A stretch of DNA of 64,000 bases. Origin: an uncultured Acidobacteriota bacterium. Its GTDB lineage: Bacteria; Acidobacteriota; Vicinamibacteria; Fen-336. Location of the stretch: assembly GCA_963720545.1 (NCBI GenBank), contig OY970399.1, positions 1,568,001 through 1,632,000 on the forward strand, read 5' to 3'. Shown here one piece after another: positions 51,316-54,031 of the stretch. The position numbers and the translations under genes were made by a program. Numbering within the stretch: the stretch's first letter is position 1; each line of letters begins with the position of its first letter. Below the pieces are notes generated by a model. That model was given only the letters and a program-made list of their open reading frames with translations. It did not search any database and was not told the origin of the DNA.

Positions 51316-52170
51316 CTACTTCTTCGGCCGCAGCGCGGCCATCATCTCTTTCGCGGCGGCGCGGTCCAAATGCGCGAACCCGGCGAACTGCTGGCCCGAG
51401 AAGAGCGACTCGGCGCCGTCGAGCGTGACGATGTCGCCCGTCTGGTAGGGGCTCGCATCGCTCATCATGTAGGCGGCGAGGTTGGCGAGCTCGTCGTGGC
51501 GGCCGAAGCGTCGTGACGGCACCCGGCGCAGAGCCTGCTTCTCCACCTCTGCTCCCGGCATCAGCCGCGAGAAGGCGCCGTCCGTCGGGAATGGCCCGGG
51601 TGCGATGCCGTTGAGCCTGATGCCGTACGCCGCCCACTCGACCGCGAGCGAACGCATCATCGCCGCAACGCCTGCCTTGGCGGCCGCCGACGGCAGCACG
51701 AACGCCGAGCCAGTGGCGACGTACGACGTGAGCATCGAGAGCACTTCCCCGCCCGCCTTGCGCGCGATCAAGCGGCGGCCCAGCTCGCGAGTGCAGTAGA
51801 ACGACCCGTAGAGAACGATCTGCACCACCGAGTTGAAGGCGTTGTCCGACAGGTCTTCGGACGGGCTCAGGAAGTTGCCGGCGGCGTTGTTGATCACCTG
51901 GTTCGCTGCCCCCAGCTCGCCTTCGAGCGCGTCGAACGCGGCGACGATCGCGGCCGAATCGCGGACGTCGCAGACCGCACTCGCGGCAGTGCCGCCGGCC
52001 TGGCGAATTGCCGCGACCGTCTCCGCGAGCGGTGCCGCGCGCCTGCCGAGGATGCCGACCTTCGCGCCGAGCCCGGCAAAGCGCATGGCCACGGAGCGGC
52101 CCAGGCCGGTGCCGCCGCCACTGATGATGGTGGTCTTGGCGGCGAGCAGGTCGGGGCGGAACGGCTCCAT
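51316..52170 (-). CDS. SDR oxidoreductase, 2,4-dienoyl-CoA reductase-like
   Basis: SGGGTGLG, NNAAGNF, SAAAKAG, IAPGPF. Confidence 0.9.
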   Translation of the reverse strand: MEPFRPDLLAAKTTIISGGGTGLGRSVAMRFAGLGAKVGILGRRAAPLAETVAAIRQAGGTAASAVCDVRDSAAIVAAFDALEGELGAANQVINNAAGNFLSPSEDLSDNAFNSVVQIVLYGSFYCTRELGRRLIARKAGGEVLSMLTSYVATGSAFVLPSAAAKAGVAAMMRSLAVEWAAYGIRLNGIAPGPFPTDGAFSRLMPGAEVEKQALRRVPSRRFGRHDELANLAAYMMSDASPYQTGDIVTLDGAESLFSGQQFAGFAHLDRAAAKEMMAALRPKK

Positions 52171-52180
52171 GCCGCGGATG

Positions 52181-52528
52181 CTAGCCGCCGGAACGCTTCG
52201 ACGCGAAGCCGCGCGCGGCGAGCGCTCGCTCCACGGTGTCGCGGTGGTCGCCCTGGATCTCGATGATGCCGTCCTTCACCGTGCCGCCGGCACCGCACGC
52301 CGCCTTCAGCTCGCGGCCAAGCGCGTCGATGGCGTCGCGGTGGCCGCGGATTCCGCTCACGAGCGTGACCACACGGCCGGAACCGCGGCGGTCGAGGCGC
52401 AGCCGTGCCTGCGAGGCGCGCGGGTCGAGCGCGCGCGAGCCGGCCGGCGCAGGACGCGGTGCGCGCGGCGCGTCGGTCGAATACGCGAGCGCTGTTTCAG
52501 CGCCGCCCACGGGGGTTTTTCTCCGCAT
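52181..52528 (-). CDS. yciH: Translation initiation factor SUI1/eIF1 homologue
   Basis: LAYSTD, GRVVTLVSG, LKAACGAGGTVKDG.IEIQGDHRD. Confidence 0.92.
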   Translation of the reverse strand: MRRKTPVGGAETALAYSTDAPRAPRPAPAGSRALDPRASQARLRLDRRGSGRVVTLVSGIRGHRDAIDALGRELKAACGAGGTVKDGIIEIQGDHRDTVERALAARGFASKRSGG

Positions 52529-52585
52529 TGAGGTCAATGTTAAAGTTCCGCCTGCAGATCTTTTCCTAACGCAAGCGAGGATCCT

Positions 52586-52843
52586 ACGACGAACCGCGGA
52601 CGAGCAAGCCAGGCGAAAAGAAGGCGGGAGATCGCTCGCCAGGAAAAGGCCCGGGACAAGGCCGCCGATCGCGCCACCCGCCGCGACACCCGAGTCACCC
52701 GCGAGCGCCCCGCCGGTGAAGACCCGGACATCGCCGGGATCCGCCCCGGACCGCAGCCGCTTCCCGAGGAGTTCGCCGACCTGCGTGACCTTGGCGACCT
52801 GAACGCCGAGGAAGGCGAAGAAGAAGAAAAAGAAGAGGCGTAG
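52586..52843 (+). CDS. Small basic-N/acidic-C protein (EDPDIAGIRPGPQP), apparent ACG start; not in the ORF track
   Basis: 85 codons (M)TNRGRASQAKRRREIARQEKARDKAADRATRR...EDPDIAGIRPGPQPLPEEF...EEEEKEEA*. SD GAGGA at 52577-81. No in-frame ATG/GTG/TTG after the TAA at 52541. Confidence 0.75.
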   Translation, partial: TTNRGRASQAKRRREIARQEKARDKAADRATRRDTRVTRERPAGEDPDIAGIRPGPQPLPEEFADLRDLGDLNAEEGEEEEKEEA

Positions 52844-52854
52844 GCCCGCGGCAG

Positions 52855-53739
52855 CTACGGCGTCAGCACCTCGACGCCGTCCTTCGAGATGAAGATGGTC
52901 TTCTCGGCCTGCGCCACCGGCCGGCGCCCCCGTTCCACGAGCGGCGGGTAGACCTGCAGGTCGCCGGCGCGCTCCAGGCTCTTGAGCGTCGCGTCCACCT
53001 CGGCGCGCGCGAACTCGGAGAGCTGGCGGCGGGCGAACGGCAGGCCGCGAAACGCCTGGATCGCGGTGACGAGCGCGTTGCCCTTGCGGTTGGGCGGGCC
53101 GACATGGCGGAAGACCTCGGCCTTGCCCTCTTCGGTGATGAGCCCCTTGCCGTCGGTCGCGAACGGCTCGATCGCCACCACCATCCCGGCCACGAGCCTC
53201 GTGGTCGAACCGTCGGCGACGTTGGGAATGGAGGGCGAGGTGTGCACGGTGTAGCGGCCGACGCCGTGGCCGCACAGGTTGCGCACAGGGGTCAGGCCGT
53301 GCGAGCGGATCGTCAGCTCGATGGCGGCGGCGACGTTGTTGATGCGCACGTTCGGCCCGGCGGTGCTGATGGCGGCATCGAGCGCGTCGACGGCGGCGTC
53401 GACGAACTTCTGGCGTTCCGGCACGCCGCCGACGTTGACGGTGAGCGCGGTGTCGACCACGTAGCCGTCCACGTGCACCCCGAGGTCGAGCTTGGCCAGG
53501 TCGCCCTGCTGGTAAGCGGTCTCGTCTTCCGGAGACGGACAGTAGTGGGCGGCAATGTGGTTGACCGAAGACTGCGTCGGGAACGCCGGCAGGCCGCCGA
53601 GGCGCGTCATCTCGTCGTCCACGAACTGGCAGACATCGCGGATGGTGGCGCCGGGCACGATGCGCGCGGCGCCGTCGCGGCGCACCTGCGAGGCGATGCG
53701 ACCCGCTTCACGCAGGCATTCCAGGGCTTCACGAGTCAT
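52855..53739 (-). CDS. map: Type II (archaeal/eukaryotic-type) methionine aminopeptidase
   Basis: AFP...S.N.IAAHY, KLDLGVHVDGY.VDTA.TV, NLCGHG...VH, AIEPFAT.G.G, insert GLPFARRQL, YPPLVE...VAQAE.T. Confidence 0.9.
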   Translation of the reverse strand: MTREALECLREAGRIASQVRRDGAARIVPGATIRDVCQFVDDEMTRLGGLPAFPTQSSVNHIAAHYCPSPEDETAYQQGDLAKLDLGVHVDGYVVDTALTVNVGGVPERQKFVDAAVDALDAAISTAGPNVRINNVAAAIELTIRSHGLTPVRNLCGHGVGRYTVHTSPSIPNVADGSTTRLVAGMVVAIEPFATDGKGLITEEGKAEVFRHVGPPNRKGNALVTAIQAFRGLPFARRQLSEFARAEVDATLKSLERAGDLQVYPPLVERGRRPVAQAEKTIFISKDGVEVLTP

Positions 53740-53830: not shown

Positions 53831-54031
53831 CTACGCCTTGGAGACGTTCGCGGCGCGCGGACCCTTCGGGCTGTCGACCACCTCGAAGCGCACTCGCTCA
53901 CCCTCGTTCAGGGTGCGAAACCCGTCGGCGCGGATTTCAGAGTGGTGCACGAACACGTCCGGACCACCTTCACGCGAGAGGAAGCCGAATCCCTTGGCTT
54001 CGTTGAACCATTTCACCGTACCTTCGATCAT
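53831..54031 (-). CDS. cspA: Cold-shock protein
   Basis: [34 protein letters not shown]. Confidence 0.97.

Follow-up and report, generated by a model that had tools for sequence, protein, structure and literature searches.

A conserved, unannotated small gene with a likely ACG start codon, divergent from yciH in an uncultured Acidobacteriota bacterium

Near-cognate start codons are known from few bacterial genes, and almost all of them are AUU, AUA, AUC or CUG. The closest described cases include infC, which encodes initiation factor IF3 and starts with AUU in Escherichia coli and AUA in Staphylococcus aureus, and E. coli pcnB (AUU), whose near-cognate starts are reported to keep output low (10.1101/063800, PMC5499595, PMC13009471). 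The near-cognate starts of S. aureus ccpN (AUA), cvfC1 (AUU) and citZ (AUA) are documented by ribosome profiling and reporters, at about 10% of AUG and with extended Shine–Dalgarno (SD) sequences, and that of citZ is described as limited to one strain lineage (PMC13009471). ACG is reported to be weaker than AUU, AUA and AUC (PMC3643588), and accounts of the AUG-to-ACG mutant of phage T7 gene 0.3 and of E. coli GFP and CAT reporters give initiation of about 1% or describe it as severely reduced. The accessible text of a survey of annotated starts does not include ACG among them. Our search of the literature, with subscription journals mostly outside it, found no natural ACG-started chromosomal gene in bacteria, although supplementary tables of ribosome-profiling studies may list some.

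Here we describe a small gene in a 64,000-nucleotide stretch of contig OY970399.1, hereafter the window, from an uncultured soil bacterium of the Acidobacteriota. Like infC and pcnB, it is chromosomal and combines an SD with a near-cognate start; unlike theirs, its codon is an ACG, mismatched at the second position and confined to one lineage. As in pcnB and citZ, the codon falls in the Met column, the SD stands at a working distance and there is no other in-frame start. The gene also resembles ccpN, cvfC1 and citZ in being a small or regulatory gene missed by annotation, and citZ in the lineage-limited distribution of its codon, but it has an ordinary rather than extended SD and is known from sequence alone. 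The T7, GFP and CAT starts share its codon but are laboratory mutations, whereas this ACG is natural and common to strains. In contrast to infC, no feedback loop is evident, since the gene does not encode a known initiation factor. We read the gene as working like pcnB or S. aureus citZ, with a weak start that would lower the dose.

Layout of the locus and its predicted start signals

The small gene lies between yciH and a methionine aminopeptidase gene, map, in the following arrangement.

51316..52170, minus strand: short-chain dehydrogenase gene (sdr), behind yciH; it is the partner divergent from the small gene where yciH is gone
52181..52528, minus strand: yciH (SUI1 family), 115 aa, divergent neighbour with a leaderless-type ATG; PF01253 over cut-off
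52537..52546, both strands: predicted shared promoter core, extended −10 RTGnTAnnnT on plus and TAACAT on minus
52537..52569, plus strand: out-of-frame ATG frame of 10 codons, ending at TAA 52567–52569; the same in short-read contigs X1 and X12
52573..52581, plus strand: Shine–Dalgarno-like site, with a GAGG core 5 nt before the first ACG and GAGGA at 52577–52581
52586..52588, plus strand: ACG, likely start codon, aligned to the homologues' Met column
52589..52591, plus strand: second ACG, alternative start, adjoining the first
52586..52843, plus strand: small conserved gene, 85 codons and TAG, single copy, with a basic N-terminal helix, the motif DPDIAGIxPGPQP and an acidic tail
52855..53739, minus strand: type II methionine aminopeptidase gene (map), convergent neighbour; TIGR00501 280.8 bits, cut-off 222.65
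53831..54031, minus strand: cold-shock domain gene (csp); PF00313

The order sdr, yciH, small gene, map is common to most loci of the family, and by this order the small gene is orthologous to its counterparts. The window's map starts with ATG. Its type II product is of the archaeal and eukaryotic kind and is kept throughout this bacterial family.

The small-gene frame opens, stop to stop, at 52544, after the stop at 52541–52543, and holds no ATG, GTG or TTG from that stop to its end. Re-reading the sequence bore out the original prediction on this point and on the position of GAGGA, which precedes the two ACG codons by 4 and 7 nt. The hidden gene that it had proposed is real (conserved, unannotated and single-copy), and all of its coordinates were correct. 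No second copy was found in this genome, so the gene has no back-up. Pairing of the SD with this genome's 16S tail is worth −7.5 kcal/mol, against −1.3 to −14.1 in relatives, and is thus mid-range; the SD is not strengthened, unlike those reported for weak starts (PMC5622118, PMC13009471).

Overlapping −10 elements on the two strands were found as claimed: TG-T-TAAAGT at 52538–52546 on the plus strand and, on the minus strand, TAACAT at 52542–52537, 8 nt before the yciH ATG at 52528. The extended motif RTGnTAnnnT occurs at most 75 nt upstream in 34 of the 39 map-linked loci that have their 5′ end (17 with ATG, 17 with GTG), compared with 199 sites in the whole 4.09 Mb genome, both strands counted, which places the promoter call above chance. 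TAACAT is among the commonest hexamers at such a distance before starts in this genome (12 of 285). A consensus promoter scan requiring a −35 element gave no match at the locus, and folding of the leader yielded no stable, start-independent structure worth claiming. Transcription would start near 52553 on the plus strand and at 52528–52530 on the minus strand. These predicted starts, about 23–25 bp apart, fall within the 7–25 bp by which bidirectional promoters are reported to be defined (PMC10268837); such promoters have overlapping opposite-strand −10 boxes, as here, but their commonest layout has a spacing of 18 bp. The leaderless-type start of yciH is supported by three close relatives that open at the same Met (52528) and lack the alternative GTG, on which a strain difference, 52509 A>G, also bears.

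The ACG codon and start usage in the family and the genome

Where relatives open with M-A-N-R-G-R the window reads T-T-N-R-G-R, which places the first ACG in the Met column. P0002, a database protein from a sister lineage with 93% identity, has Thr-Thr at the ACG ACG site and is known as a protein, not at the codon level. Among this lineage's database entries there are five of yciH and one of the small gene, the latter from a likely wrong ATG.

We compared eight short-read runs with the locus. Contigs X1, X5 and X6, from three studies, span the ACG, X1 possibly deriving from the source sample. X1 has no differences across 52480–52762; X5 has 13 differences and 2 gaps across 52351–52844, 12 of the 13 being placed and none of these in 52510–52761; and X6 has 9 differences across 52572–53031, all placed away from the start, with the ACG 14 letters from the contig end. 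X7, X8, X11 and X13 do not reach the site, and X12 is gapped over it. At position 52587, where the original prediction had allowed for a sequencing error, the three studies' contigs agree with ACG; since they carry it with no listed change at the codon, such an error is rejected. Over 52510–52761, from the promoter through the leader to two thirds of the way along the gene, there are no placed differences in X1, X5, X6 or X12, whereas yciH differs by 4–7% in X5 and X6. This clean block may reflect strong constraint or a local sweep.

Start codons were then scored at 210 of 213 distinct loci (206 distinct core sequences), the other three being truncated at the 5′ end; duplicate retrievals and four weak matches were excluded, and related loci are not independent. 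ATG is used at 136 loci, GTG at 53, TTG at 18 and a near-cognate codon at 3. With 207 of 210 starts canonical, no near-cognate start is kept across a wide clade, and this orthologue tabulation, which had been proposed with the prediction, marks the ACG as lineage-specific. Three near-cognate starts in 210 may not exceed background; the neighbouring csp and sdr genes have canonical starts in 52 of 52 and 27 of 27 cases. The other two near-cognate copies, each known from one assembly, are a CTG start in G292 (locus L242), with GGAGG 5 nt upstream, and an ATC start in G225 (L261), with a stop codon two codons upstream. Both copies carry an SD, have eroded motifs, sit on long branches and lie near csp, not yciH, and their sampled family relatives have canonical starts.

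The map gene shows a start pattern of its own. In 8 of 33 loci (L007, L009, L014, L025, L026, L035, L036 and L116) it has CTG instead of any ATG, GTG or TTG, and in seven of these eight CTGA overlaps the stop of the upstream gene, where other relatives have ATGA or GTGA. The pattern, conserved in two clades, points to coupled re-initiation on the CTG codon. TTG and GTG starts of map are also common among relatives.

A screen of start usage against the relative G037 covered 580 orthologue pairs, or 1.6 of its 5.7 Mb, so rare cases may be missed. It raised 36 flags in this genome and 60 in G037; the 36 are mostly wrong-frame matches, alignment overshoot or frameshifts, with a few still ambiguous, and genome-wide relaxed starts were set aside as an explanation. 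Among the 110 pairs anchored on a G037 ATG, 80 have a canonical start at the same place, 29 have one elsewhere in frame and only the small gene has none, which argues against genome-wide ACG initiation. In this genome infC (L111, G000:C1 about 463900–463340, minus strand) has ATA at its likely start, a non-canonical start of the usual kind. The screen also brought up apparent frameshifts relative to G037 in conserved genes near 2636900 (+) and 1215500 (+) of G000:C1, possibly assembly errors.

Selection on the frame and competing explanations

The frame still looks to be under purifying selection after the start change, on a small sample, because 6 of the 7 coding differences in strain X6 are synonymous (neutral expectation 0.25–0.31 synonymous, P 0.001–0.004); this test draws on one contig at depth 3.9, and all of the differences lie after 52761, in the last third of the gene. 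P0002 differs from the window protein by five substitutions and two in-frame insertions, all of which spare the motif and the first 29 residues.

There are also signs of relaxed constraint in this lineage. The identity of the small protein to its relatives is 0.64, versus 0.80 among the relatives, a wider gap than for map (0.58 and 0.62), sdr (0.75 and 0.79) or yciH (0.54 and 0.60). In a quick and weak tree of 65 columns all three near-cognate copies sit on long branches: the stem to the window copy and P0002 measures 0.82, the CTG copy 0.81 versus 0.37 for its sister and the ATC copy 2.11 versus 0.26. The map branch of this genome is long as well (0.54). The window copy places outside the syntenic clade, and in its tail it is similar to distant homologues; ancestral retention may thus account for part of the divergence.

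We consider it probable that an ATG-to-ACG change took place in this lineage and that the gene is still translated from the ACG by SD-led initiation, at a predicted 1% or so of the ATG level. A transcript from the extended −10 at 52538–52546 would have some 33 nt of leader, the SD would be bound by the 30S subunit, and fMet-tRNA would read ACG with a second-position mismatch, giving a trickle of protein that would suffice for the frame to stay selected. In E. coli, ACG is reported to give 48/7314 and 78/7838 of AUG activity, or 0.7–1.0% (PMC3643588), and mostly an N-terminal Met by mass spectrometry (bioRxiv 10.1101/063800). The start change is most readily explained as a turn-down, by drift or under mild selection, of a gene whose amount is of little consequence in this lineage, since weak starts are tolerated in the family and its three near-cognate copies evolve faster. 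An output near 1% may be too little to explain selection.

We rate as unlikely a bolder reading, of a natural chromosomal ACG kept by selection in an uncharacterised RNA- or ribosome-binding family whose dose has been throttled repeatedly through IF3-policed ACG, CTG and ATC starts of independent origin, within a cluster of translation genes in which map also starts with CTG in some relatives. IF3 would be expected to police this start as it does near-cognate starts in general, and a narrower form of the idea holds that the ACG itself was selected as an IF3-sensitive control of initiation fidelity, in the manner of infC, with YciH playing no role. The IF3 loop looks intact, given the ATA of infC in this genome; near-cognate starts have arisen three separate times in the small-gene family; and the locus is rich in translation genes, with map CTG-started in some relatives. 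We regard such a selected control as unlikely: the SD is not extended, the near-cognate start is not kept over a wide clade as infC-type control would require, and the patchy distribution of near-cognate starts argues against a built IF3 circuit.

Alternatively, the gene may be a silent pseudogene, slowly decaying since the loss of its start. The missing start, a divergence faster than that of the neighbours, the dispensability of the family in many lineages (99 of 251 genomes in the phylum sample match its profile, many weakly) and the eroded motif of the CTG and ATC copies would all fit. This reading is improbable in view of the synonymous bias in X6, the frame and motif that stay whole in two lineages despite the changes separating P0002 from the window copy, the promoter and SD unchanged in strains, and the single copy, which leaves no back-up.

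A further candidate start, absent from the original prediction, is the ATG at 52537, one base out of the small-gene frame; translation from it would enter that frame through re-initiation or through a +1 shift close to TTT TCC TAA. The corresponding ATG of the sister lineage is in frame, and P0002 was called from it, 16 codons upstream of the Met column; the 16-residue extension is open, both of its ends match the window translation, and GAGG stands 3 nt before the ATG. The ATG is, however, the RTG of the promoter motif, which is found in all 34 motif loci and lies in the small-gene frame in 10 of them, the level expected by chance. It would sit upstream of the predicted transcript start, X1 and X12 both have the one-base offset, and no family member has a conserved extension. 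A start there is therefore highly improbable; the ATG is likely not on the mRNA, and we read the upstream Met of P0002 as a gene-caller artefact.

The original prediction had gone on to propose that the ACG start is under the control of YciH, itself expressed from the shared promoter. Of that prediction the hidden gene, the ACG as likely start, a predicted −10 region of bidirectional type shared with yciH and the leaderless-type start of yciH are supported; the YciH-gated circuit is not, and we hold it to be very improbable indeed. The −10 boxes do overlap, YciH is a homologue of eIF1, and the title of Lomakin 2006 speaks of reciprocal activities of eIF1, IF3 and YciH. Against this, yciH is present in 30 of 204 small-gene loci, and in 29 of these 30 the small gene starts with ATG, so the linkage predates the ACG and does not track it. 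The two do not co-occur as the circuit would require: one of the three near-cognate copies adjoins yciH and one of the 30 yciH-linked loci has a near-cognate start, the CTG and ATC copies lying away from yciH. The ancestral linkage is often broken, yciH being located elsewhere in several other genera and not found in G002, G003, G009 and G015, which are 94–97% complete and all have the small gene. YciH moreover works in trans, so adjacency adds nothing, and the title of Osterman 2015, the one in-vivo paper on E. coli YciH, calls its involvement in initiation fidelity unlikely.

Editing of the ACG to AUG on the RNA, or an assembly error, is scarcely credible: the change is a single C-to-U step, of a kind known from plant organelles, and the single-contig genome has some apparent frameshifts, but the short-read contigs of three studies match ACG and there is no second clear case among the 110 ATG-anchored pairs, hence no sign of genome-wide editing.

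The protein family and the meaning of the gene

The small protein has 1429 homologues, whose source names point to Vicinamibacteria, Acidobacteriota. The gene is present in 50 of 59 genomes of the taxonomic family as well as in every one of the 22 relatives of the same family or class that the phylum sample lists. The window protein scores 89 bits against the family profile, like other members. Many genomes of other classes match the N-terminal helix alone (profile positions 1–50), a hint that small basic proteins lacking the motif form a wider set. The motif DPDIAGIxPGPQP, named in the original prediction, is real: it is invariant or nearly so in two alignments, as are K11, E15 and K25 among 55 diverse sequences, and the window protein is a member of the family on this evidence.

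AlphaFold predicts one long helix at residues 9–38 (pLDDT 95–97 for residues 11–30) and little else (pTM 0.36). Searches with the small protein of Pfam, NCBIfam, PDB sequences and Foldseek gave no match, and ESM Atlas gave hypothetical clusters only. A look-alike of the IF2 N-terminus in ESM Atlas fell below the reporting threshold and was set aside. Three matches among longer proteins look like frameshift or chance read-throughs rather than fusions; lengths of 150–182 were outside that search.

A cold-shock gene occurs in 49 of 204 small-gene loci, with 30 of the 52 csp matches directly upstream on the same strand. The protein may resemble the N-terminal extension of Bacteroidota cold-shock proteins. 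Its basic helix, its acidic tail and its frequent place directly behind csp suggest a helper that binds RNA or the ribosome, and we tentatively propose, as one possibility, a small basic accessory factor of this kind acting alongside cold-shock proteins.

Present evidence does not open a new regulatory circuit. If the preferred reading, a gene still translated from its ACG, is true, a conserved ACG-started gene under selection would mean that the weakest class of near-cognate codons functions in nature and that genes with an ACG start escape gene finders. The locus further draws attention to a small protein, nameless and class-wide, for which a function should be sought.
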